NCBI GenBank assembly: GCA_965231905.1
Contig: CBDDOO010000002.1
Coordinates: forward strand, 138,192-202,191
Origin: Arenicellales bacterium
GTDB taxonomy: Bacteria > Pseudomonadota > Gammaproteobacteria > Arenicellales > Poriferihabitantaceae
DNA length: 64,000 bases
Reading direction: 5' to 3'
The notes under the pieces: model-generated
Database searches by the model: none
The model's input: the letters and a program-made list of their open reading frames with translations, nothing else
Told to the model about the DNA's origin: nothing
Part shown: positions 5,146 through 36,018 of the stretch, piece after piece
Position numbering within the stretch: the first letter of the stretch is position 1
How the letters are laid out: each line of letters opens with the position of its first letter
Made by a program: the position numbers and the translations under genes

Positions 5146-5910
5146 TCAGAACAACGCCGGATTTAATGGAGAAGCGGCGGTCAATCCTCCGTCTACTATA
5201 TAACATTGTCCGGTGACGAATCGGGATTCGTCACAAGCCAGCCATACGGCCAGATTGGCGACATCGGTTGGTTGGCCCATTCGTCCGGCTGGATGACGCC
5301 GCAAGGCATCCTTCCTGGCGTTGGAGGGGTTGTCTGCAACGTCGAATGCGGCATCCGCCATTTCGGTCAGAATCCAGCCGGGGGAGATCGCGTTGCAGCG
5401 GATGGCGGGTCCATGATCCACGGCGATGGACCGGGTCAGGCTGTGAACAAAGCCTTTCGACGCATTGTAGAGGGCCAGACCGGGGTCCGCCAGATTTGCG
5501 GAGATGGACCCGATATTGATAATCGAGCCGCCCGCTTTCATGTCCGGGATCATTTCCCGGCAGGTTAAAAATGTCCCCTTTGCGTTGACGCCCATCAAGG
5601 ACTCCCAATCTTCGTCTGTTGTCTCGAGTATGTTTTTTTCAATCTGTATACCGGCGTTGTTGACCAGCACACACATCGGTCCGAGCATTTCCCTGAAGCG
5701 CTGATTCAGGGCGATCACTTGATCGGTTCGGGATACATCGGCGGTCATCCAGAATACCGAATCAGGAAGGTCTGCCGGACGCTTTCCCCTTCCGCAGGTC
5801 ATCACTGTCGCGCCTTCCATTGCGAATCGATCCACAATCGCCCGCCCGATTCCTCTTGCACCGCCGGTAACCAGGGCGGTTTTACCAGACAGCAATCCGG
5901 TTGCTGTCAT
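5146..5910 (-). CDS. SDR-family oxidoreductase
   Basis: ORF 5146..5928. TGGARGIGRAI (TGxxxGxG), NNAGI and YNASKGF (YxxxK) motifs. ATG at 5910 is preferred. Confidence 0.85.
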   Translation of the reverse strand: MTATGLLSGKTALVTGGARGIGRAIVDRFAMEGATVMTCGRGKRPADLPDSVFWMTADVSRTDQVIALNQRFREMLGPMCVLVNNAGIQIEKNILETTDEDWESLMGVNAKGTFLTCREMIPDMKAGGSIINIGSISANLADPGLALYNASKGFVHSLTRSIAVDHGPAIRCNAISPGWILTEMADAAFDVADNPSNARKDALRRHPAGRMGQPTDVANLAVWLACDESRFVTGQCYIVDGGLTAASPLNPALF

Positions 5911-24027: not shown

Positions 24028-24713
24028 GTTGACGTAGAGAGCTGCGTTGTGGATGACCGGCGCTGCATGGATTTCCTTTTCACGGCGGCTGAAATTTCCC
24101 GCTGCATCTGCTCGCGCGCCAGGGTTTGTTTGCGATGCTTGCGGGCATTATCGAATTTTTCAATTCTGATCAATTTCTGGCCGGTCTGGAACCTGGCCTG
24201 ATCAATCTGCCGGACGGAAAAGCCGGGCCAGGGGCTGGGTGTGTCGTCCATATTGTCATTTTCCATAACCCCGGGTCGAATCAGGTCAATGCAGTCAGTC
24301 GGGCAGACCGGGACACACAGTTTACAGCCCGTGCATTCATCGGCAATCACGGTGTGCATCCGTTTCCCCGCCCCGACAATGCAATCCACCGGACAGGCCT
24401 TGATGCATAATTTGCAGCCGATACATTCATCTTCCCTGATCCATGCAATCACCTTTGGCTCGTGTTCTCCGTGATCAGGATTCAATTCGACAACCGGTTT
24501 GTCGAGCAGTTTCGCCAGAGCGGCGATTGTGATTTTCCCTCCGGGTGGGCATTGATTGATTTTTGCTTCGCCGCGCTCTATGGCTCCGGCGTATTCCCTG
24601 CAGCGGGGATAGCTGCACAATGTGCATTGCGTTTGCGGCAAACACCGATCAATCTGATCTACCAGTGGCAGGTTCGATGCGGCAGTCATTGCAGGTGAGT
24701 GGCGGGTTCTCAT
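24024..24713 (-). CDS. RnfB-related 4Fe-4S ferredoxin
   Basis: 229 aa. N-terminal CxxC..C region plus two CxxCxxCxxxCP motifs. ATGA-coupled to nth, a common synteny. Confidence 0.75.
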
Positions 24714-24835
24714 TGAAATCGGTAGTTCGCGGCAAAGCGTATTGTATGATTATATTGACTGAAGTAAATGTAGGCAGTCAATATCAAGTATATAATGCCG
24801 CTCAATCAAACACATTTAAAAAAGTACTGTATTGC

Positions 24836-26455
24836 ATGAAACCTGATCCCGGCTTGACCGGTGTGGACTTGCTGCTGAGTCCCGCCCACAATAAATCGAC
24901 GGCATTTACTGAAGAAGAACGGGATCGGCTGAAATTGCGGGGCTTGCTGCCGGCTGCGATTGGTTCGATGAAAACCCAGGTTGAGCGGGTATTGGCGAAT
25001 TTACGTCGCAAGGACAACGCCCTGGAGAAATATATTTTTCTGTCTGCCCTGCAGGATCGCAACGAACGGTTGTTTTATCAGGTGATTATCGAGAATGTCG
25101 AGGAGATTCTGCCGCTTATTTATACCCCGACGGTGGGTCAGGCCTGCAAGGAGTTTGCGAATATTTTCAGAAGGGAAAAGGGTTTTTATATTACCGCCAG
25201 GGATCGCGGGAGGATTCGTGAAATCCTGGATAACTGGCCGCACCGGGATATACGGATTATTGTGATCACGGACGGAGAAAGAATCCTCGGTCTGGGGGAC
25301 TTGGGAGCCAACGGCATGGGTATCCCGATCGGGAAACTGAGCCTGTATTGCGCCTGCGCAGGGATTCAGCCCGAACAGACACTGCCGGTCATGTTCGACA
25401 TCGGAACCGATAACGAGGAGTTGCTCAATGACCCCGTTTATCTGGGCATGAGGCAGAAAAGATGCCGGGGTGAAGACTATTATCATTTGATGGACGAGTT
25501 TATTGACGCTGCCAGGGACGCCTGGCCCGGCGCGCTGATTCAGTTCGAGGATTTTGCCGCGCAAAACGCGTTTGCATTGCTGGATAGATACCGTGACGAC
25601 ACACTGTGTTTTAATGATGATATACAGGGTACGGCGGCAGTCGTTCTGGCCGGGGTTTACGCCTCTACCCGGATTTCGGGTGTGCCATTTCGGGATTTGA
25701 AATTCACTTTTCTGGGCGCCGGTTCCGCGGCATCCGGAATAGGATCGATGATTGCGAAGGCGCTGATGGCGGAAGGTCTCAGCCAGAACGAAGCCCATCG
25801 GCGTCTTTGGTATTTCAACAGCAAAGGACTGATCACCCGATCCAGGGAAAATCTGGCGAATCACATCCGATGCTTCGCCCATGACCTGCCCGATTATCCA
25901 TTTATCGAAGCGCTGGATGTTCACCAACCCGATATACTGATCGGCGCCACCGGACGGCCCGGCATATTTTCGGAACCAATCATCCGCAAACTGGCCAGCA
26001 TCAAATCCCGCCCCGGCATATTTGCGTTATCCAATCCGACCAGCCGCTCGGAATGCACCGCCGAACAGGTTTATCAATGGACGGAAGGGAGGGGCATATT
26101 CGCAAGTGGCAGTCCATTTGACGAGGTCGTCTATAATGGCAGGACATTTCGGCCTGGACAGGGCAACAATTCGTATATATTTCCGGGTGTCGGGTTGGGG
26201 ATGATTGCCTGCGGGGCCAGGACGATACCGGACTCAATCTTCCTGGAATCTGCAAAAGCCCTGGCTGGCGCAGTGACTGACGAAGATCTCAAGGCTGGTT
26301 CGATTTATCCTGAAATCAACCAAATCCGCAGGGTTTCCCTCACGATTGCCAGCGCCATTGCCGGTTATGCCTGGCAACACGGCATTGCGCCCGAAGCGCC
26401 CCCGGAAAATCTGACCGAACACATCCAGTCATTAATGTACGACCCGGTTTATTGA
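24836..26455 (+). CDS. maeA: NAD(P)-dependent malic enzyme
   Basis: The ORF starts at 24563, but the typical N-terminus MKPDPGLTGVDLLLSPAHNKSTAFTEEERDRLKLRGLLP starts at 24836. The upstream part overlaps the rnfB-like gene. Confidence 0.88.
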   Translation: MKPDPGLTGVDLLLSPAHNKSTAFTEEERDRLKLRGLLPAAIGSMKTQVERVLANLRRKDNALEKYIFLSALQDRNERLFYQVIIENVEEILPLIYTPTVGQACKEFANIFRREKGFYITARDRGRIREILDNWPHRDIRIIVITDGERILGLGDLGANGMGIPIGKLSLYCACAGIQPEQTLPVMFDIGTDNEELLNDPVYLGMRQKRCRGEDYYHLMDEFIDAARDAWPGALIQFEDFAAQNAFALLDRYRDDTLCFNDDIQGTAAVVLAGVYASTRISGVPFRDLKFTFLGAGSAASGIGSMIAKALMAEGLSQNEAHRRLWYFNSKGLITRSRENLANHIRCFAHDLPDYPFIEALDVHQPDILIGATGRPGIFSEPIIRKLASIKSRPGIFALSNPTSRSECTAEQVYQWTEGRGIFASGSPFDEVVYNGRTFRPGQGNNSYIFPGVGLGMIACGARTIPDSIFLESAKALAGAVTDEDLKAGSIYPEINQIRRVSLTIASAIAGYAWQHGIAPEAPPENLTEHIQSLMYDPVY

Positions 26456-26465
26456 GCTTACTTTG

Positions 26466-27290
26466 ATGACCATTGCAGACCCTCATTGCCGTTCCCATTC
26501 TCTGGATGACGAAACCGCCGGGCGCCTGATCAGCCGGCTGGAAAGCCGGGCGCAGGATGACGTGTTCACCCGGTTGTTCGACCGCTATGCCGATACCCTG
26601 GAATTTTCCGACGATTCACTGACGCTGGAGGTGGGGTGCGGCACCGGAGCCATGATTCGCTCGCTGGTGAAAAAACCGAATTTCCGAGGCCGCATTGTCG
26701 GTGTCGATCAGAGCCTGGCTTTCATTGATGCGGCATCCGGCTTCGCCGATGATGCAGGTATCGCGGGCCGGGTCGAATTTCGTGTCGGCGACGCGCATAA
26801 TCTTGACAATGCAGACGGAGAATTCGACCGGGTCATCGCCCACACTGTGATCAGTCATGTTGTCGATCCGCAATCGGTGGTCAACGAGTGCGCCCGGGTT
26901 TTGCGTCCGGGGGGATTGCTGGTTGTTTTCGATGGGGATTACTCGTCTCTGACCTACGGATTTCCCGATGATCCGGAACTGGGACGGCGAATGGATCGGG
27001 CGCTTGCTGAAACCACCTTCCAGAATCCGCTGATCATGCGGGACCTGATCAGGCTGTTGCCCGAAAATGGTTTTGAGATCGAAGATACCCATGCCGAAAT
27101 CGTTTCGGAAATCGGGGAGGCCAGCTACTTCAAATCCTTTGCCGACACCTACGCGCCCATGGTGGCGAGTGGTGACAGGATGGGTGTCGGTGAGGTGGAG
27201 CATTGGGTCAATGGGCAGGCTGAACTGATTGCCAGCCAACAATTTTTCGCTTCATGCAATTACTACACCTATCGGGCACGGCGCGTCTGA
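26466..27290 (+). CDS. class I SAM-dependent methyltransferase
   Basis: LEVGCGTGAM motif I and the later RVLRPGGLLVVFD. Confidence 0.7.
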   Translation: MTIADPHCRSHSLDDETAGRLISRLESRAQDDVFTRLFDRYADTLEFSDDSLTLEVGCGTGAMIRSLVKKPNFRGRIVGVDQSLAFIDAASGFADDAGIAGRVEFRVGDAHNLDNADGEFDRVIAHTVISHVVDPQSVVNECARVLRPGGLLVVFDGDYSSLTYGFPDDPELGRRMDRALAETTFQNPLIMRDLIRLLPENGFEIEDTHAEIVSEIGEASYFKSFADTYAPMVASGDRMGVGEVEHWVNGQAELIASQQFFASCNYYTYRARRV

Positions 27291-27306: not shown

Positions 27307-27555
27307 TTAACGATCAAAATAAATCAGGTGGTTGATGTCCAGCTTGATTCCCAGGCTTTCTCCGACACCGTGGTCGTGGTGGGATGGAACGAGAGTGAGT
27401 ACCCGGGTGCCGCTTGGCAATGCCAGTGTGTACAGATAACTTTCTCCGCGAAACGCTTTCTTGATGATCCTGGCCGTCGTCGGGCTGTCGTCATCGTGAA
27501 TGATGTCATCGGGCCGGATCAATACTTGGACTTTCTTCCCGGCGCCGGGTTTGAT
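27307..27555 (-). pseudogene. orphan 3' fragment of an fbpC-like ABC ATPase gene
   Basis: The 82 C-terminal codons are nearly identical to the C-terminus of the intact gene at 32174..33262. The N-terminal 280 codons are missing. The MMLTT start of the tracked ORF comes from unrelated DNA. Confidence 0.9.
27308..27555. repeat. 248-bp direct repeat, copy 1 (pairs with 32175-32422)
   Basis: My hand alignment gives 11 mismatches in 248 bp and no indels. Confidence 0.9.
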
Positions 27556-27566
27556 CGTTGTCAGCA

Positions 27567-29399
27567 TCACTCCGCTTCCTCACACAGCAGCTGATCCGGT
27601 GACCAGATCAGGGCTGCCAGTTGGCAGTAGAGTATGGAACGCTCTTCCAGATCGGCCTTGGCGAATTGTTCATGGGCCCGGAACGGCAAGCGATATTTTT
27701 CGATGGTTTGCTGAAAACCCGGATTGTTCTGGTAGAACGTTTCATGCAGCGACTGTGCCAGGGCATTGGTCTTGAGGAAATGTGGCAATTTCTCCGCATA
27801 GGTCATGTCATTCAAGCTGGCGTTGATCTTTTTGGGCAAGAGCAACAACCCGCCGATGCGGTTGCGATGGATGTCGAAGTCGTTCTGCTGGCCGAACTCC
27901 TCCGTGAACCGGTCGTAGTGGTTGGCCCAAATGTGCTCGACTTCGTAGGCGTACTTGCCGGATCGGACTATGTAGTCTTCGTACTTGCCGGGCTCTCCCA
28001 TTTGCTGCTCCAACCAGTCAGTGAAGCGGGCAAGCTGGCGATGGATAGCCTTTGAGGTGAACTGGTTGAGACCGACCGGTTCGGAAAAGTCGATTTCTTC
28101 CATCTCATTGAGCAGCCGCTTGTGCAGGATGGTTCGAACCTCGGCCAGTGACTTGCCCCTGATGCTACCGATCACCAGGAAGATGGCGTATTGCATTGAA
28201 GAGTAGCTGTTGGATTTGTAGTTCCAGAGGCGGAGGTTCAGCCAGCTATCGAGAAAGTTGGCAACGACACCCACCTTGGCTGTTGCTGTCTCCATGTCGT
28301 CATCTGCTGTGATGGCAGCGAGAGTAACATGATGTTGTAGCGTGAAGCCTGCGTCGGCGTTGTAGCGGACGCTTTCAATCCCTTCGGTGCGTGTGTTGGC
28401 AGCATCCATCAGCCGCAGGTACAGGGTCGCGAAGTAGCGGAAATCCCGCATAACAAACTGATGGAAATCGGCAGAGGTGTTGAGACCGATCTCGTGGGCG
28501 TGGTTGCGAAGCCAGCGGTGGTACTCGGTACCGATCAGATCGAAATCCTCGGGCTTGGCGTCCTTCTTCCGTTCTCTAATCTTGGTGGAATACTGCGACC
28601 GTAGCCACGCCTTGAAAAAGTCAGCATCCGTCTCCTTGCTATGCTCCGCGAAAAGGCTCAAGTACTTCTTGATCAGCTTGTCAGCTTCCAGCCGCTTGGC
28701 TTGGTTATCTATGTTAGCCAGAAGGTAGCCTTTGAGCATGTCCGTAGGAGTTAGTGACAACCCCCGGTCATTCATCGTCTCGAAGATTGTGTAGGCGTCA
28801 TCGTCTGCGTAGGCGATGATCTCGATGAGTTTCACTTTGCGCATCAACCAGTAGATGAAGAGCGGCAGGGCATTCCCGGCAAGCTCTTCGGGGAAGAGTT
28901 CGCCGAGCTCCTGGTATCGGGTAGCGAGATTGCGAACTGATTCCGAGGCATCGTCCGTGTTGAAGATCGTGTCGTTGAACAAGGCCTCCATGCAGTCGTT
29001 TCGCTCGGGGACGCTCAACTTGAATTTCTTCTCTCCAAAGTCGTCTGCGTAGACGAGCGATTGGATTGAGACCTGCTGTTCACGCTCCTTCTGGAGGTTG
29101 TTCAGGTAGATGAGCAGGATTGACAGTGAGGTTAGACGCTGCTGGCCGTCAACAATGTATCGGATGTCACCATTCTGGCTGACCACGATGGAGCCGAGGA
29201 AGTAGTGGCCATAGCTGGCGACCTTCGGCGGTGCATCCCCTGGCTGGTAGCTGTTGAGGAAGCGGCCTGTCAGATCGTCAACAAGTTCCTGAAGTTGTTT
29301 CCGACCCCATTTATATTCCCGCTGGTAGTAATCAATACCATAGCTCCCACCAGAGAGTAGTTCTTGAATTGAGCGGTCGTAGCCCTTGATATCTTGCAT
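27567..29399 (-). CDS. DUF262/DUF1524 protein (GmrSD-like type IV restriction-type nuclease)
   Basis: 610 aa. N-terminal IDYYQREYKW...DGQQRLTS (DUF262, ParB-like). C-terminal EVEHIW...HRNRIGGLLLLPKKINASLND (His-Me finger, DUF1524). Confidence 0.8.
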   Translation of the reverse strand: MQDIKGYDRSIQELLSGGSYGIDYYQREYKWGRKQLQELVDDLTGRFLNSYQPGDAPPKVASYGHYFLGSIVVSQNGDIRYIVDGQQRLTSLSILLIYLNNLQKEREQQVSIQSLVYADDFGEKKFKLSVPERNDCMEALFNDTIFNTDDASESVRNLATRYQELGELFPEELAGNALPLFIYWLMRKVKLIEIIAYADDDAYTIFETMNDRGLSLTPTDMLKGYLLANIDNQAKRLEADKLIKKYLSLFAEHSKETDADFFKAWLRSQYSTKIRERKKDAKPEDFDLIGTEYHRWLRNHAHEIGLNTSADFHQFVMRDFRYFATLYLRLMDAANTRTEGIESVRYNADAGFTLQHHVTLAAITADDDMETATAKVGVVANFLDSWLNLRLWNYKSNSYSSMQYAIFLVIGSIRGKSLAEVRTILHKRLLNEMEEIDFSEPVGLNQFTSKAIHRQLARFTDWLEQQMGEPGKYEDYIVRSGKYAYEVEHIWANHYDRFTEEFGQQNDFDIHRNRIGGLLLLPKKINASLNDMTYAEKLPHFLKTNALAQSLHETFYQNNPGFQQTIEKYRLPFRAHEQFAKADLEERSILYCQLAALIWSPDQLLCEEAE

Positions 29400-29486
29400 T
29401 GATCAATATCCTCGTTGTGTTCTGGGCCGTGGTGTAAGAGATTCACGCTTTACGCAGTACCTGGTGCACAAGGCTGGGTTCACAGC

Positions 29487-31079
29487 CTACGCGATTGACC
29501 CCTCCAACAACTCAATTTGCTTTTCCCGCCGCGGTCTCACCGATTCGGGTAACAACCCGTCGATTGCTTTCGCCGGGACATTTCCCAGTTCTTTCGGCTC
29601 CAGCTTGTGCAACCCGCCACCGTAGACGCGACCTTCTCCAAGCATTGTCTTCGGGCAAATCTCGTTCAGGAATTCCCATACCTGTCGTTTTAATTCCGGC
29701 CTGTCCTGCAAGACGAGTTTAACAGGCTCTTTCGGGTACAACATCAAGTATACATTCGCGGCCGTCGCTTTCGAATTATTCAGTAAGAAGCGAAACGGCC
29801 TACCATTCTTTTTGTCGCTTCGGCCGAGATAGGTGCAGATGAACGGTGCTGGCGGCCGGCATTCCTGCGTGTACCACAGCTTCCGGTGTCGGCAGAGATA
29901 GCGATCAGCAATGCCTTCCGCCTTGCCCTCTTCAAGATAGGTCCACAGCTTTGGATAGCGCTCCCTGATCTCGTTTTCCGTCCACGGAGGGTCAAGCAGA
30001 AACAAACGCCGTTCCAGCATGGGGTTACCCTCATGATCACCCTCAATCTCGTTGTCCGGCACATAGCGCGGACTTGGCAGAATCGGCTTGAATGCTCCCA
30101 TCGGTAGCCCGCGTCGCTCAATCTCCTGTGCCGACAGGATGAAATAGTTGTTGTTGCCTGTCGCCAGACCCCGCTTGATTTTGAAGAAATCGCTCAGCAC
30201 CGGTCCCTCGGTCGTTTCATGACTTTCCTTCACCGGATAGCGTGTCCATTTTGGATCATGGTGCAACGTCTGGACCGGCACCAGCCGTTCCAGCTTCGGT
30301 CGTTCCAGTGTTCCTCCATAGGTGAAGCGCACTTCATGTCCTGTTCGAGGAAGTTCGTTACGGAACCACACAACGGCCGATGACACAAGTGCGTCGCCGA
30401 ACTGTACATCGGTCGGGTCGAAGCGATGAATGTGCAGAAGTGTCACCTTGCTGAGTAAGTATTGTTTTATCGAGACGCCATAATTCACATCCATGAACTC
30501 GCTCGGAATCAACCACCCCGCCAGGCCGCCATCGGTCATCCATGCGTGACTCAGGCCCAGGAAATAGCAATAGAGCCCGGCCAGTCCGTTGATCTTCACG
30601 CCACAGGCATCCTTTGTGTGCATCTTCAGTCGCTGTTTTTCGCCGTTGATGATATGGTGATGCCGTACATAAGGCGGATTACTGATCAGCAGGTTAAACT
30701 TTTCGGCAGCCTCCGGCGCTTTTGCCTGAGTGAAGTCCTTCAAGCGGATATCCAACCCCGTTTCACCCCATAGTTTCGATGCCGGTCTACCGTAATGAGG
30801 ATCAATTTCATACCCCACTGCTGCATGGATACGGGTTTGCGGGAACACGTTCAGAAACGCCGAATAGAAAGAGCCTGTCCCGATTGCCGGATCAATGAAC
30901 CGCACTTTTTCGTTTTTATCGAGATGTGCATTCGCATAGCGCTGAATATCTAAAGCCAGGCTAAGCGGCGTCGCAAACTGTCCCATCCGGTTCCGCAAAG
31001 CAGTGTCCCTTCCCGCATCCAATTCGTGTTGCAGGGCCAGCCGCTGTGCCTCTAGTTTTTCAAAGGCTTTTTTCATCAT
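29487..31079 (-). CDS. N6-adenine DNA methyltransferase (Eco57I-type gamma class)
   Basis: 530 aa. FIDPAIGTGSF (motif I) and LISNPPYVRHHH (motif IV NPPY). Confidence 0.85.
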   Translation of the reverse strand: MMKKAFEKLEAQRLALQHELDAGRDTALRNRMGQFATPLSLALDIQRYANAHLDKNEKVRFIDPAIGTGSFYSAFLNVFPQTRIHAAVGYEIDPHYGRPASKLWGETGLDIRLKDFTQAKAPEAAEKFNLLISNPPYVRHHHIINGEKQRLKMHTKDACGVKINGLAGLYCYFLGLSHAWMTDGGLAGWLIPSEFMDVNYGVSIKQYLLSKVTLLHIHRFDPTDVQFGDALVSSAVVWFRNELPRTGHEVRFTYGGTLERPKLERLVPVQTLHHDPKWTRYPVKESHETTEGPVLSDFFKIKRGLATGNNNYFILSAQEIERRGLPMGAFKPILPSPRYVPDNEIEGDHEGNPMLERRLFLLDPPWTENEIRERYPKLWTYLEEGKAEGIADRYLCRHRKLWYTQECRPPAPFICTYLGRSDKKNGRPFRFLLNNSKATAANVYLMLYPKEPVKLVLQDRPELKRQVWEFLNEICPKTMLGEGRVYGGGLHKLEPKELGNVPAKAIDGLLPESVRPRREKQIELLEGSIA

Positions 31080-32042
31080 CTATAGCCCGAATTTCCCGAG
31101 ATCGTTGATACGGTGCTCCCAGACCCAGTCGATGCCTTCTGCCGCCTCATAACCGAGATAGCCACTGTCGAAATATCCGCACAAGAACAAGGTGTAGCGC
31201 ACATTGTGACCGTAGGTTCGGCGCAGTTGACTCATTTTAGTGGCTTCCTCCTTGCGTCGTTTGTTGACGTTCGCGAAATCTCCTGCTGATTTCGCTTCGA
31301 TCAGCAACGGTAGTTCTCCTGCCTTCGCATCCTTCGGCATAACTACGACATCCACAGAGATATTAACCGGTTTGGCAGTACTTTCCTGAGCGACGGGTAC
31401 GTTAAGCCGAAATGAATATGTCCCCGGCTGCATCTCGTGATACTTCGTTCCCCCGTCTGCCGTCAGACTCTTGTATCCCAAGGCCGTCAACCATTCGCTG
31501 ATCATCGCGAGTTGACGTTTTTCCTGTGCGTTGCGGATGATTGGATTGGCAACGGCCCCGCATAGGCGATCAGCCACGACTGTCGCGGCTCGATACAGAT
31601 CCTGTTTGGGCGGATTATCTTCGCGCCCCAACCAGACAAAGACATCCGGGTCCGCCATTTTCTCGATAATCTCCCCGATCTTCTTAAGATCCCTGTCCAA
31701 CTCCCGAAGCGGCATTCGCGGCGGGACTCTGTTGTTTTTCTCCATTGTCTTGATCAGGTTGCTGGAAACGCCAGCAAGGCCGATCAGTCGGTCCATGGCC
31801 AATGGTGGACAAGTGGACATTCGCAGTGACGGCAACACCGAGGGCTTCGCCTTCAGCAGTTCCATGCCCACATTCGTCAGGTTCTTCGTCGCTTTCAGCG
31901 TCGCCTCGACATCCTTTGTGGTCTGAATCCGCGTCGTTCGGTAAGCCTCCGGCGCAAAGCGCATGAACCAGTCATTGTACATGTCCACTGACTGTGCAAT
32001 GTCCTGTTTCCACCGGTCCGGCTTGTCCCTGTTAACTGCCAT
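31080..32042 (-). CDS. type II restriction endonuclease (XamI-like family, tentative)
   Basis: 320 aa, immediately upstream of and abutting the MTase. PD-ExK-like ISVDVVV...LLIEAKSAGD. The N-terminus resembles proteins I recall annotated as XamI family. Confidence 0.6.
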   Translation of the reverse strand: MAVNRDKPDRWKQDIAQSVDMYNDWFMRFAPEAYRTTRIQTTKDVEATLKATKNLTNVGMELLKAKPSVLPSLRMSTCPPLAMDRLIGLAGVSSNLIKTMEKNNRVPPRMPLRELDRDLKKIGEIIEKMADPDVFVWLGREDNPPKQDLYRAATVVADRLCGAVANPIIRNAQEKRQLAMISEWLTALGYKSLTADGGTKYHEMQPGTYSFRLNVPVAQESTAKPVNISVDVVVMPKDAKAGELPLLIEAKSAGDFANVNKRRKEEATKMSQLRRTYGHNVRYTLFLCGYFDSGYLGYEAAEGIDWVWEHRINDLGKFGL

Positions 32043-32173
32043 TACGTGCTTGTCTTTATCTGGCCCTGATTATCAGTCACTGATGCTTCCCTCACCTTAA
32101 GTTTGGAAAATATAGTTGATGTGTTCACGATTGATCCTTGATCAGATGTAGTGATCATTATAAAGGACACCGC

Positions 32174-33262
32174 CTAACGATCGAAATAAATCAGGTGATT
32201 GATGTCCAGCTTGATCCCCAGGCTTTCTCCGACACCGTGGTCGTGGTGGGATGGAACGAGAGTGAGTACCCGGGTGCCGCTTGGTAATGCCAGTGTGTAC
32301 AGATAACTTTCCCCGCGAAACGCTTTCTTTATGATCCGGGCCGTCGTCGGGCTGTCGTCATCGTGAATGATGTCATCGGGCCGGATCAATACCTGGACCT
32401 TCTTCCCGGAGCCGGGTTTGATTTTCCGCAGGTCCTGTTGAATCCGGTCATCGGATACGTCACCGATCAGGTCCCGTTCACCGTACTGTGAAAGTTCACA
32501 TTGAATTTTGCCATCAGATACTAAAGTACCATTCAGAAACACGCCGTCACCGACGAAGTTCGCGACAAACCGGGTTTCAGGCTGATGGTAGATATTGTAT
32601 GGGGTTCCCCATTGTTCTATCCGGCCCTGGTTCATCACCCCGACCATATCGCCAAAGGTGAATGCGTCCTGTTGGTCATGGGTAACCAGAATGCAGGTTG
32701 TACCGATTTCCTTCAACAAATCCCGCACTTCCTGTCCCAGACTCTCGCGCAGTTCGAAATCCAGATTGGAAAAAGGTTCATCCATCAGCAGCAGTCCCGG
32801 TTTTGGCGCCAGCGCCCGCGCCAGCGCTACCCGCTGTTGCTGGCCTCCTGACAGTTCATGGGGATAACGCTTGCTGTAGTCGGAGAGGCGGACGTATTCC
32901 AGTATCTCTTTAACGGCCGCTTTCCTGGATGACGGTTCTTTTCCATACAGCCCCGCCTCGACATTTTTTTGTACGGTGAGATGGGGAAAGAGGGCGTAGT
33001 CCTGGAACACCATGCTGATATTTCTTTTTTCAGGGGGAATATTGACGCGGGCGCTGGAAATACAAATTTCGTGGAGAGTGATTGAGCCGCCAGCCAGTTT
33101 CTGAAAACCTGCAATTGCCCGTAATACAGTAGTTTTCCCGCAACCACTCGGGCCGAGAAGACAGGCCAGCGCGCCCTCTTCCAGGTCGAAGGAAGTCTGA
33201 TCGACGGCGCTCTCACTTTCGTATCGACAGCTGATGTTATCTACTTTCAGGATAGAGGACAT
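32174..33262 (-). CDS. fbpC: Fe(3+)/polyamine-type ABC transporter ATP-binding protein
   Basis: 362 aa. Walker A GPSGCGKTT, signature LSGGQQQR, Walker B LLLMDEP. Confidence 0.85.
   Translation of the reverse strand: MSSILKVDNISCRYESESAVDQTSFDLEEGALACLLGPSGCGKTTVLRAIAGFQKLAGGSITLHEICISSARVNIPPEKRNISMVFQDYALFPHLTVQKNVEAGLYGKEPSSRKAAVKEILEYVRLSDYSKRYPHELSGGQQQRVALARALAPKPGLLLMDEPFSNLDFELRESLGQEVRDLLKEIGTTCILVTHDQQDAFTFGDMVGVMNQGRIEQWGTPYNIYHQPETRFVANFVGDGVFLNGTLVSDGKIQCELSQYGERDLIGDVSDDRIQQDLRKIKPGSGKKVQVLIRPDDIIHDDDSPTTARIIKKAFRGESYLYTLALPSGTRVLTLVPSHHDHGVGESLGIKLDINHLIYFDR
32175..32422. repeat. 248-bp direct repeat, copy 2 (3' end of intact fbpC)
   Basis: Pairs with 27308-27555. Confidence 0.9.
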
Positions 33263-33308: not shown

Positions 33309-35024
33309 TCAGTCGGCTTTTTGTTTCAGCAACTGAGAATACGAAATTGTTTTGCTCAAGACAATAACCGGAACCAGCCCCGTCAGGACGATCATCAACG
33401 CGGACAGGGCGCTGTGTTCTATCATTTCGTCCGAAGCGAACAGGTACACATGGGTGGCAAGCGTTTCAAAGTTGAAGGGCCTCAGCAGCAGGGTGGCTGG
33501 CAGTTCCTTCATGCAATCGACGAATACGATCAGCATGGCGGTAAAGATGCCGCTTTTGATCAGTGGGATATGAAACAGGCGAAGGGTTCGCAATGGGGGG
33601 TGGCCCAGGGTGCGGGCAGCCATGTCGATAGACCCCGGAACCTTGGAGAAGCTGGATTCGATGCTGCCCGTGGAAATCGCGAGAAACCGGATAATATAGG
33701 TGAGGATCAGCGCGAAGATGGTGCCGGTCAGTATCAGTCCGGTCGAGAAGCCGAAATGCAGCCTGGAAAGGCCATCGACCCAGTTCTCGAACGTGGTCAG
33801 GGAAATGACGATTCCCACTGCCAGAACCGAACCGGGAACCGCATATCCGAGTGATGAGATTTTCGACAGGGAAGTGAACCAGGACGGGGTGATGATTCTC
33901 CGGGAATAGACAATCACAATGGAAATGGCGGCGCAACTGACCGCGGCGATGCCGGAAACGGTCAGGCTGTTGAATGCGTATTCACGAAACTCCGTAGTCC
34001 AGGACTGATCGAAATACCGTATGCCATAATGGACCAGCATGGCAAAGGGGATCAGGAATCCGGCCAGGACCGGCAGAAAGCAGAGGGTAAAGGCAATCCA
34101 TTTGGCGATGCCGTGTAACGGGGTCTTTTCCCGGCGGGTGAATCTGCCGGCGCTCTGGTAAAAACGGATTTTGCTTCGTCCGGCCTGTTCCAGAGCCAGC
34201 AGGATCAGCACGAAAGTCAGCATGACCAGCGCTATCTGGGCCGCCCCGCCCAGATTATTCATGTTCAACCAGACATCGAACAAGCCTGCGGTCAGGGCAT
34301 GTACGGCGAAATAATCCACCGTGCCGAAGTCGTTGAGTGTTTCCATCAGCGCCAGGGCGGTGCCGATGGCGATACCCGGCCTGGCGATAGGCAGGGAAAC
34401 AAACAGAAACGTATTGAAGCGGGATCGCCCCATCAGGCGGCATGCGTCGAGTAAATGAGGAGATTGTTCGAGAAATGAAGAACGCGCCATCAGATAAACG
34501 TAAGGGTATAGCGTCAGACCCATCAGCATGATGGCGCCGCCCATGCTGCGCACGTTCGGGAACCAGTAATCCCTGGCGAGTTCCCAGCCGAAGATTTCTC
34601 TCAAGAAGCCTTGAACCGGCCCGGCAAATTCGAGCAGGTCAGTATAAAGATAGGCGATCACATAAGCAGGCACGGCCAATGGCAGTAATAGCATCCATTC
34701 GAAAATCCGGCTACCGGGAAATGACCAGGCGCTGATCAGCCAGGCGGTGGTGACCCCTGTCAAAAAAACCGATATCCCGACACCCGCCATCAATATAAAG
34801 GTATTCGACAGATAGCGCGGCAGGGAGGTGCTTACCAGATGGGGCCATATATTTTCTGTTGGTGAAAACGCCACCCAAATGATGGCCATCAGCGGCAACA
34901 GGGCGACCAGCGCCACGCAAACGGCGCCCGTCCCCCAGAAGCTGCCCCCAGGGCCGGACCCTGAATGGCCAGGGTTTACGTCGGCGGGGGAGCCGACAGA
35001 ACGCTCAATTGTCGTAGCCGACAC
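33309..35024 (-). CDS. fbpB: iron(III) ABC transporter permease (duplicated two-module type)
   Basis: 571 aa, highly hydrophobic, with two permease modules. Sits between the ATPase and SBP genes. Confidence 0.8.
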   Translation of the reverse strand: MSATTIERSVGSPADVNPGHSGSGPGGSFWGTGAVCVALVALLPLMAIIWVAFSPTENIWPHLVSTSLPRYLSNTFILMAGVGISVFLTGVTTAWLISAWSFPGSRIFEWMLLLPLAVPAYVIAYLYTDLLEFAGPVQGFLREIFGWELARDYWFPNVRSMGGAIMLMGLTLYPYVYLMARSSFLEQSPHLLDACRLMGRSRFNTFLFVSLPIARPGIAIGTALALMETLNDFGTVDYFAVHALTAGLFDVWLNMNNLGGAAQIALVMLTFVLILLALEQAGRSKIRFYQSAGRFTRREKTPLHGIAKWIAFTLCFLPVLAGFLIPFAMLVHYGIRYFDQSWTTEFREYAFNSLTVSGIAAVSCAAISIVIVYSRRIITPSWFTSLSKISSLGYAVPGSVLAVGIVISLTTFENWVDGLSRLHFGFSTGLILTGTIFALILTYIIRFLAISTGSIESSFSKVPGSIDMAARTLGHPPLRTLRLFHIPLIKSGIFTAMLIVFVDCMKELPATLLLRPFNFETLATHVYLFASDEMIEHSALSALMIVLTGLVPVIVLSKTISYSQLLKQKAD

Positions 35025-36018
35025 GATCCGCGATTTTCGAGGCTTCAGCGCGATTGGCCGCCACCGCCGTCAGACTTACGCTGTCCTGTTTGAACGCGCC
35101 CCAGGCCCTGACTGCATCCGCCAACTCGATACCGGGCTTTACGGCATATTCTCCGTTGAGCTGCGCGTACATCTCCTGCGCTGTGCCGCTTGCCAGAAAT
35201 CTCATCAGTTTCAGCGCGTTGTCCCTGTTCGGCGCATGTCGGGTCATCGCCATTCCGCTTACGTTCATGTGCGCGCCGCGGCCGTCCTGATTGGGAAACA
35301 CGACATTGACCGCGTCTGCCCACGCTTTTTGATCCGGATTCGAGATCATTTTGTACATGTAATAATGGTTGATTACGGCGATATCGCATACGCCTTCCTT
35401 GATCGCCTTGACCTGCGCCCGGTCATTGCCTTCCGGTTTGCGCGCCCGGTTGGATTTTACATTTTGCAGCCATTCCTGCGCCCCTTCCACTCCATGATGC
35501 ACAATCATCGAAGCGATCAATGCCACCATATAGGAGTGTTTCCCGGACCGGGTGCAGACCAGGCCCTTGAATTCGGGCTTGGCGAGGTCTTCATAAGTCG
35601 AGACAGCGCCATCGGCGACCCGGTCCCTGGAGGTGACGATAACCCTGGCTCTGGAGGTGAGGCCGTACCAGTGATTACCAGCGTCTCTCAAGTTTTCCGG
35701 GATATTGTCCAACAGGGTTTGATCCGTCACGGCCTGGGTCAGGTTCGCGTTCTTGATGTCAGACAGGCGGCCGATGTCTACCGTGAACACCAGGTCAGCC
35801 GGGCTGTTTCTGCCTTCGCTTTTCAACTTCTCCAGCATCCCCTTTTTGGCGAAGACAACATTGACTGCGATACCCGTATCCGCGGTAAACCGATCAAACA
35901 TGGGTTGAATCAATTCCGGGTTCCGGTAGGAATATACATTGACCTCTTCCGAGGTGTAACCCGTTTCCACAAGCCCGATAAAGAGCGCGGATGCGATAAC
36001 AAGATATTTTGATTTCAT
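35005..36018 (-). CDS. fbpA: Fe(3+) ABC transporter periplasmic substrate-binding protein
   Basis: 337 aa. Signal peptide, then VNVYSYRNPELIQPMFDRFTADTGIAVNVVFA...NSPADLVFTVD, typical of FbpA/AfuA. Confidence 0.8.
   Translation of the reverse strand: MKSKYLVIASALFIGLVETGYTSEEVNVYSYRNPELIQPMFDRFTADTGIAVNVVFAKKGMLEKLKSEGRNSPADLVFTVDIGRLSDIKNANLTQAVTDQTLLDNIPENLRDAGNHWYGLTSRARVIVTSRDRVADGAVSTYEDLAKPEFKGLVCTRSGKHSYMVALIASMIVHHGVEGAQEWLQNVKSNRARKPEGNDRAQVKAIKEGVCDIAVINHYYMYKMISNPDQKAWADAVNVVFPNQDGRGAHMNVSGMAMTRHAPNRDNALKLMRFLASGTAQEMYAQLNGEYAVKPGIELADAVRAWGAFKQDSVSLTAVAANRAEASKIADRVGYDN

Follow-up and report, generated by a model that had tools for sequence, protein, structure and literature searches.

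How did the 3′ end of a housekeeping gene come to stand on both sides of a group of restriction genes? The question is posed by the locus around fbpC, the gene for the ATPase of an Fe3+ ABC transporter, in a 64,000 nt stretch of DNA (here, the window) from an Arenicellales bacterium. The genome, here called G000, is a metagenome-assembled genome (MAG) of two contigs, and the window corresponds to C2:138192–202191. In it, the last 248 nt of fbpC are present twice in the same orientation, and the two copies enclose an islet of ~4.6 kb with three predicted anti-phage restriction genes, namely a type II restriction-modification (R-M) pair and a gene of the GmrSD family. Weighing the evidence set out below, we think it reasonably probable that the repeat and the islet arose by homology-facilitated illegitimate recombination (HFIR) at a variable hotspot between fbpC and the gene for malic enzyme. 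The locus is a clear natural example of a known process, and no new kind of system.

The two fbpC ends and the uninterrupted site

A repeat search of the window returned a single family, a 248 nt direct repeat at 27308–27555 and 32175–32422 with 96% identity and a spacing of 4867, and a genome-wide search found no third copy. The copy at 32175–32422 forms the end of the full-length fbpC (32174–33262, minus strand), which encodes 362 aa with ABC_tran and TOBE_2 matches, and is the one attached to the islet. The other copy is a remnant on the same strand (27307–27555) that consists of fbpC codons 281–362 and a stop codon. In a pairwise alignment of the two, similarity breaks off sharply at either end. 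A base-by-base count gave 10 mismatches in 248 nt, and with the third base of the stop codon (T at 27307 and C at 32174; TAA in the remnant and TAG in the full gene) there are 11 differences in 249 nt, or 95.6% identity, confirming both the coordinates and the 11 differences reported in the initial annotation of this DNA. That annotation had also described nearly all of the differences as synonymous, which holds when the repeat is read on the minus strand: nine mismatches are synonymous and one, in codon 285, replaces TCC (Ser) in the full gene by GCC (Ala) in the remnant, the stop codon difference being counted apart. The mismatches are spaced evenly across the repeat and leave no long identical tract. 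From the exact alignment, the Nei-Gojobori method (S = 59.3 and N = 186.7 sites) gave 0.169 synonymous substitutions per synonymous site (dS) and 0.0054 non-synonymous substitutions per non-synonymous site (dN), a dN/dS of ~0.03. The probability of at least 9 of 10 changes being synonymous under neutral change, given 24% synonymous sites, is 2.2e-5.

For comparison we used the same-genus genomes G001–G007, which are MAGs of sponge symbionts named Arenicellales or Candidatus Poriferihabitaceae, together with the assemblies E311–E313, which were obtained from 90% FbpC clusters and have fbpC genes 91–93% identical to that of G000. Over the whole set, fbpC shares 86–93% nucleotide identity with G000. 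When the 11 differing sites were polarised with ten orthologues as outgroups, the full copy was found to carry ~6 derived states, all of them synonymous, and three of these (gene positions 864, 925 and 1047) are common to G002. The remnant has three derived states, one of them non-synonymous, and carries the majority state at six of the 11 sites; two sites could not be polarised. At the rate seen in the full copy (6/59 synonymous sites), a neutral remnant of equal age would be expected to have accumulated ~25 changes, the majority of them non-synonymous, and only three or four are seen. Most of the divergence therefore predates the junction, and the remnant has been a pseudogene only briefly. 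Judging from these patterns of substitution, the repeat consists of two fbpC alleles that acquired their differences in separate genomes while both were working genes. The proportion of synonymous changes and the polarisation thus bear out the earlier suggestion that the copies diverged as functional genes and not by a local duplication followed by decay.

A maximum-likelihood tree of the 249 nt, containing both copies and the orthologues, placed the remnant outside a group formed by the full copies of G000 and G002 (support 84/90), and joined the G007 allele to an fbpC remnant in G002 that is described below (89/73). The two copies in G000 are mutually nearest, at 95.6% identity versus at most 93% for any of the 10 sampled orthologues. 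As the alleles are only 4.4% apart, closer than any of these orthologues (88–93%), the donor is likely to have been a close relative.

The relatives also reveal the uninterrupted site. In G004, G003 and G007, fbpC converges on a gene for a class I S-adenosylmethionine-dependent methyltransferase, which in the window (26463–27290, plus strand; Pfam Methyltransf_11/25/31) adjoins the remnant. This is the uninterrupted methyltransferase/fbpC junction that the initial annotation had expected to find in relatives, and there is a variant of it in G001 and E311, where fbpC directly faces the gene for NAD(P)-malic enzyme (24563–26455, plus strand; Pfam malic and Malic_M). The methyltransferase gene lies elsewhere in the genome in G001 and G005. 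The distance from fbpC to its convergent neighbour is only 8–22 nt. The downstream flank of the remnant in G000 aligns with the downstream flank of fbpC in G004 and G003; hence the remnant is in the ancestral context and it is the end of the full copy that is attached to the islet.

Other contents were found in the interval in further genomes. G005 has an outer-membrane protein gene, a RES-Xre toxin-antitoxin pair and a YgjP-like peptidase gene, G006 has a gene for a giant Ig-domain protein and an insertion sequence (IS) transposase gene, and E312 and E313 have other genes again, while in G004 11 kb lies between the methyltransferase and malic enzyme genes. The interval between fbpC and the malic enzyme gene is a variable hotspot in this sponge-symbiont genus. 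The malic enzyme gene, which is 84–90% identical in all same-genus genomes, marks the core boundary on its far side and is a possible homologous anchor; it and the methyltransferase gene are oriented toward the remnant. On the left, the conserved flank consists of fbpB (33309–35024, minus strand; permease, Pfam BPD_transp_1) and fbpA (35005–36018, minus strand; binding protein, Pfam SBP_bac families), the rest of the operon. These two genes are 88–95% identical to those of the relatives without a step in identity, and synteny with annotated relatives identifies both flanks of the islet as ordinary core genes. None of E311–E313, the closest sampled relatives of G000 (91–96%), has the islet.

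Within fbpC, a patch at 32490–32600 (codons ~220–255) is 94–95% identical to G005 and G001 and 83–88% identical to the other genomes, and on account of this patchy identity we regard fbpC itself as a mosaic of alleles exchanged within the genus. One further candidate remnant, P0134 (122 aa), proved to be a frameshifted fbpC on a contig with 2x coverage and was set aside.

The GmrSD gene and the sister genome

The GmrSD gene (27567–29399, minus strand) is followed by the 12 nt ATG CTG ACA ACG (27556–27567, minus strand), the ATG of which overlaps the GmrSD stop codon as TGATG; the junction to fbpC codon 281 comes next. The closest relatives of the GmrSD protein, which are 79–81% identical in amino acids over a full-length alignment and come from Rhodobacterales, Rhizobiaceae and Candidatus Poriferihabitans, are encoded in type I R-M operons ordered hsdM-GmrSD-hsdS-hsdR. 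There, hsdS begins ATG TTG or ATG CTG, and its start codon overlaps the stop codon of GmrSD as TGATG; the TGATG in G000 is identical. On the other side of GmrSD, in the spacer that separates it from the gene for the DNA methyltransferase of the type II pair (29400–29486, minus strand), only TGATCAATG before the GmrSD start resembles the hsdM stop and GmrSD start of the relatives. This leftover of the hsdM stop region is the only one, and the rest of the spacer differs even between G000 and G002. To judge from these traces, GmrSD has been excised from a type I R-M operon, leaving four hsdS codons behind. Because hsdS in the relatives starts at an identical overlap, the start codon with which the remnant open reading frame (ORF) begins is a relic of hsdS and did not evolve for the remnant. 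The relic and the remnant are in frame and together make an ORF of 86 aa (86/87 codons) that gene callers report (P0137).

GmrSD-like genes within type I R-M operons have been described before (PMC11411939). In Candidatus Poriferihabitans, two identical copies of a Mutator-family IS (L113 6542–7897 and 10224–11579) flank the GmrSD gene of such an operon, one lying between hsdM and GmrSD and the other within hsdS. Flanking copies of this kind are a possible way for GmrSD to be cut from its operon.

A second junction was found in G002, which has the same XamI-family nuclease and methyltransferase pair at the same site and the same sequence just below the fbpC stop codon; ~45 nt at this position in G000 are common only to G002 (~86–91%). 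Read from the malic enzyme gene, the G002 map begins with ~10 nt, an hsdS relic and the last 47 GmrSD codons. It continues with a second defence islet inside the broken GmrSD (L101 3782–7498), which encodes an MTaX1-HNH nuclease with an N4/N6 methyltransferase, a ThsB-like TIR protein and a SLATT_3/SLATT_1 membrane protein, and with a small ORF. A second fbpC remnant comprising the last 199 nt of the gene follows, then the first 79 GmrSD codons, the methyltransferase gene, the XamI gene, an ORF of 113 codons and fbpC. The hsdS relic next to the malic enzyme gene reads ATGCCGGCAACGACCAAACC, followed by a C-tract and the malic enzyme stop codon. In G002, the original distal end of the islet thus abuts the malic enzyme gene with no fbpC repeat.

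The fbpC remnant of G002 is joined within GmrSD at codon 80 by a 7 nt microhomology, TGACATC, and in this case both parent sequences are known: GmrSD reads ...AATGGTGACATC and then CGAT, fbpC reads ...CCCGATGACATCATAC, and TGACATC is common to the two. The joint lies between otherwise unrelated sequences, and its 7 nt are within the ~3–12 nt range of microhomology in an HFIR footprint. This remnant, too, is in frame with the gene piece upstream. It is 94% identical to the G007 allele, versus 86–88% for the G002 background, and has three non-synonymous changes and three indels. From these changes and the G007-like identity, we take it to be an older, decaying orphan from another lineage. The junctions lie at different distances from the end of fbpC, 248 nt in G000 and 199 nt in G002.

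Comparison of the islets and their flanks in G000 and G002 revealed exchange after the lineages split. In the core genes, dS is 0.44 (fbpC) and 0.335 (malic enzyme), whereas in the islet it is 0.092 for XamI (97.5% amino acid identity) and 0.07–0.13 for the GmrSD pieces; the methyltransferase has a value of 0.26. In addition, a 400 bp tract made up of the end of the spacer below fbpC and the first 330 nt of XamI (32119–31712 in the window, L149 ~5230–5640 in G002) is 100% identical in genomes that are otherwise ~90% identical. Given the low dS in the islet and this tract, we conclude that the islet was exchanged between the two lineages after their split, and the identical tract points to a very recent recombination event within it. 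The fbpC 3′ ends of the two genomes have a dS of 0.51, and the adjoining spacer likewise shows the divergence of core DNA.

In G002, fbpB does not stand in front of fbpC. The DNA upstream is unrelated and rich in repeats of the GGGAATACCCC and CGTAGGGGAGGG types (L101 12250–14001 and L149 1–3770), from which we conclude that the fbp operon is broken or rearranged there. The 113-codon ORF between fbpC and XamI (L149 4907–5245) matches nothing in Pfam or PADLOC, and other XamI genes have no homologue of it nearby. In G000, where ~310 bp have been deleted at a CAAC microhomology, a short relic of it survives (32097–32128 in the window, from the GTG at 32128), and the new reading frame of the relic terminates in TAATG, which overlaps the XamI start codon.

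Origin of the repeat

Under the explanation that we favour, DNA of a close relative carrying fbpC, the islet and the hsdS relic would have paired with the recipient fbpC, and its far end would have been joined to codon 281 of the recipient gene by the short match CAAACC. With a complete 3′ end provided by the donor, fbpC would have stayed intact, and the recipient's own last 248 nt would have been pushed downstream to survive as a young pseudogene, in frame with the hsdS start codon to which it is fused. CAAACC (27554–27549) is common to fbpC codons 282–283 and to the hsdS relic of G002 (compare ATGCTGACAACGATCAAACCCGG in G000), which suggests that the G000 joint may have used it. The direction of transfer, the exact crossover and the uptake of linear DNA are inferred.

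HFIR had been put forward in the initial annotation, as had the absence of any integrase or transposase from the islet, and both have gained support. Pfam and PADLOC scans found no integrase or transposase among the islet ORFs, no tyrosine or serine recombinase gene was detected in 27307–32173 or the flanking 10 kb, and the repeat search found no terminal inverted repeats at the islet. It is the independent junction in G002, at a different fbpC position and at a 7 nt microhomology, that argues for illegitimate recombination over a site-specific element. The other source considered in that annotation, an element with its own surrogate 3′ end, has found no support: there is no integrase, and the position of the junction differs between genomes. 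The idea that the islet arrived with a piece of a foreign fbpC orthologue stands insofar as the copies are two alleles from different lineages; the donor is, however, only 4.4% away, and the side that came in is not settled.

Several observations weigh against HFIR anchored in fbpC. No genome closer than ~93% to G000 was present in the collections searched, so that the donor allele was not found, and nor was an uninterrupted site in the same species; a scan of metagenome contigs with FbpC gave a best match of 69%, and exact look-ups of the FbpC and XamI proteins returned no record. The CAAACC match was deduced from the relic in G002 and not from the real donor. Sliding identity over fbpA-C, or over the malic enzyme gene and its neighbours, showed no import boundary, no close relative being available for the comparison. 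As the fbpC 3′ end and the spacer are at core divergence between G000 and G002, they were not co-transferred in the latest exchange of the near-identical XamI region. Finally, support in the tree is moderate and comes from 249 nt in a genus that is visibly recombining.

An identical final map would be produced by the mirror-image event, and the structure therefore does not decide which copy was the incoming one. In that case, the islet would have been resident between fbpC and the malic enzyme gene, as in the ancestor of G002, and the last 248 nt of fbpC, the methyltransferase gene and the malic enzyme gene would have been imported by HFIR from a relative that has them in this order, anchored in the malic enzyme gene and joined illegitimately to the hsdS relic. 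The remnant would then be the foreign piece and the methyltransferase gene the cargo. With the hsdS relic ~10 nt from the malic enzyme gene, as it is in G002, a CAAACC joint would fall at the anchor end with little loss from the recipient, which is textbook geometry. The remnant in G002 is demonstrably foreign to its background, and the divergence of the fbpC 3′ end and spacer at the core rate looks as if they had long been inherited with the islet. However, the mirror-image event requires two events in the G000 lineage, the islet arriving first and the methyltransferase gene second, and the closest sampled relatives have no islet. Moreover, the remnant has the majority, ancestral states and the widespread gene order, while the derived states of the full copy are common to G002, the only other islet-bearing genome. 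We consider import from the malic enzyme side possible but rather unlikely, and favour an anchor in fbpC because one event suffices, the nearest relatives are without the islet and the remnant is in the common gene order.

One intact gene and one 3′ fragment flanking an insert, as observed here, would also be left by a single crossover within fbpC if a circularised fragment or small replicon carrying the islet and a 248 nt fbpC 3′ fragment, with the hsdS/fbpC joint already formed in the circle, had integrated in the manner of Campbell. Each copy would in that case be a chimera reciprocal to the other, a possible reason for the occurrence of derived states on both, but there is no switch point among the 11 sites. 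This route does not dispense with an illegitimate joint, and the Pfam and PADLOC scans of the islet revealed no gene for replication, mobilisation or a recombinase. The different junction in G002, at another position in fbpC and inside GmrSD, would call for a separate circle for each event. Integration of a circle is thus improbable.

We give still less weight to an old duplication or insertion in situ, with the copies kept similar by gene conversion or by selection on a stand-alone TOBE-domain peptide. In its favour, each copy is closer to the other than to any sampled orthologue, gene callers report the remnant as an ORF, which is intact and has a coupled start codon, and the two known remnants each continue the reading frame of the gene piece upstream. 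But the differences are evenly spread with no long identical tract, the start codon was inherited from hsdS, the G002 remnant is decaying, and six of the 11 differing sites carry states also found in other species. We also know of no mechanism that makes a 248 nt target duplication around 4.6 kb of foreign DNA.

Least probable of all, and very doubtful, are an integrase-borne island with a surrogate end at the fbpC 3′ end (attL/attR) that has since lost its integrase, as, common though islands that rebuild the 3′ end of a target gene are, no integrase was found, the repeat is not a short identical core but 248 nt long and 4.4% diverged, the islet ends distally in a truncated hsdS and not in an element terminus, and the islet in G002 has other junctions and no common att core, and an assembly chimera of two strains, conceivable in a MAG, which would switch within homologous sequence and not at the hsdS/fbpC joint and would not account for the same kind of scar in the independent assembly of G002.

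If HFIR anchored in fbpC is accepted, it is plausible that the joints fall within fbpC because, with gaps of 8–22 nt to the next gene, the stretch supplied by the donor is one of the few harmless places for them. We suggest, tentatively, that the end of fbpC is an integrase-free stacking site for defence cassettes, at which each import leaves an allelic gene-end orphan, and that this is a general route of defence turnover in sponge symbionts without mobile-element machinery at the site. Orphans fused in frame to a translationally coupled start codon might be expressed.

Islet genes and known systems

Outward from fbpC on the minus strand, the islet consists of a 131 nt spacer (32043–32173), the XamI nuclease gene (31080–32042), its methyltransferase gene (29487–31079), GmrSD, 11 nt and the fbpC remnant. 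The gene content given in the initial annotation, a restriction endonuclease, a methyltransferase and a DUF262/DUF1524 protein, agrees with the Pfam scan. The putative XamI-family type II restriction endonuclease matches RE_XamI (PF09572) over the full profile (positions 1–256 of 256, E = 1e-114) and PADLOC REase_II (1.5e-111), and its partner is a predicted type II N6-adenine DNA methyltransferase of the Eco57I-like gamma class (Pfam Eco57I and N6_Mtase; PADLOC MTase_II, 2e-135). The full-length match and the adjacent methyltransferase gene are those expected of a member of the XamI family. The third protein, of 610 aa, is predicted to be a type IV (modification-dependent) restriction enzyme of the GmrSD family and is apparently intact. 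It has an N-terminal DUF262 domain (GmrSD_N, 4e-33) with DGQQR at residue 84 and a candidate C-terminal DUF1524 His-Me nuclease domain with EVEHIW at residue 488, for which GmrSD_C scored 22.7 bits, just below the 23-bit cutoff. Its best PADLOC match is HEC-06 (1e-34).

XamI homologues were adjacent to a methyltransferase gene in 80/80 loci from many phyla, and the pair was found in MAGs of many phyla typical of sponge microbiomes, with up to 86% amino acid identity. In the 80 related loci the XamI pair was never beside an fbpC orthologue, and no association of GmrSD or XamI with fbpC was found outside this genus. GC content fails to set the islet apart, and scans for promoters and terminators returned fewer sites than in shuffled sequence. 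The hexamer GTCGAC, which we take to be the XamI recognition site, has an observed/expected ratio of 0.52 genome-wide and ranks 12 of 64 palindromic hexamers, which is not specific evidence for XamI-type activity. Other palindromic hexamers are strongly avoided in G000 (observed/expected 0.12 for CATATG, 0.22 for ACGCGT and ~0.36 for ATCGAT, CGTACG and AAGCTT), and such avoidance suggests that the genome has long been exposed to many restriction systems.

A genome-wide self-comparison for diverged direct repeats around islets revealed a second R-M islet outside the window, with genes for an NgoMIV-family nuclease, an N4/N6 methyltransferase and a zeta-toxin-like kinase. It has a 208 nt direct repeat with 95.7% identity (C2:837073–837279 and 840733–840940), in which there is a TTCCCGCGGAAGCGGGAA hairpin and which resembles a dispersed non-coding element, not a gene end.

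Few well-resolved footprints of one-sided homologous recombination are known from nature, as opposed to laboratory transformation. The fbpC locus combines two allelic gene ends, a young pseudogene that can be dated, an hsdS relic that traces the cargo and an independent junction in a sister genome at a proven microhomology. It shows that defence genes can be exchanged between related symbionts without an enzyme of a mobile element, and that a type IV enzyme can leave a type I operon and be combined with a type II pair by recombination.

The closest known setting of the cargo is that of GmrSD-like type IV enzymes within type I R-M or Hma clusters, such as TgvAB of VPI-2 (PMC11411939) and HEC-06 of PADLOC. 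The closest relatives of the G000 GmrSD likewise have hsdM on one side and hsdS on the other, and their stop and start codons overlap. The G000 gene differs in having moved beside a type II pair, and only the hsdM stop and four hsdS codons remain of its former surroundings. As in integrase-borne islands with a surrogate end, the target gene is kept intact by a replacement 3′ end and direct repeats of the gene end flank the insert. Unlike those islands, the locus has no integrase, a long and diverged repeat, a broken gene at the end of the insert and a junction that differs between genomes (248 versus 199 nt).

HFIR was described in naturally transformable bacteria (de Vries and Wackernagel 2002; Prudhomme et al. 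2002; Meier and Wackernagel 2003; all as cited in PMC5361080). The fbpC locus resembles the laboratory events in having one homologous anchor in a conserved gene, foreign DNA beside it and microhomology at the far end (7 nt in G002; 6 nt, on our reconstruction, in G000), with no recombinase genes, inverted repeats or fixed site. Those events, as summarised there, were produced under selection, whereas the fbpC locus is a footprint left in nature, in a symbiont that has not been cultured. It differs further in that the joint falls within the part of the anchor gene carried by the donor, so that the genome has two allelic versions of one piece of the gene.

For stacked 'orphan' 3′ modules beside conserved genes, the published model is likewise HFIR, with an anchor and a joint at a microhomology (PMC5361080). 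As in the effector-immunity arrays of the Vibrio cholerae type VI secretion system (T6SS) described in that paper, the anchor gene is complete, a new cassette lies beside it and the old 3′ end is displaced as a homologous orphan. The stack of two cassettes and their relics in G002 is similarly like the orphan 3′ modules of Rhs and contact-dependent inhibition (CDI) toxin genes, as these are cited there (Poole 2011; Koskiniemi 2014). The likeness is confined to topology and proposed mechanism: the anchor at this locus is a housekeeping ABC ATPase with a conserved TOBE end and no polymorphic toxin domain, the cargo consists of restriction systems and the orphan is without evident function. If the end of fbpC is indeed a stacking site, the nested relics in G002 would represent repeated rounds of import, as in the Rhs and T6SS arrays but on a housekeeping gene.

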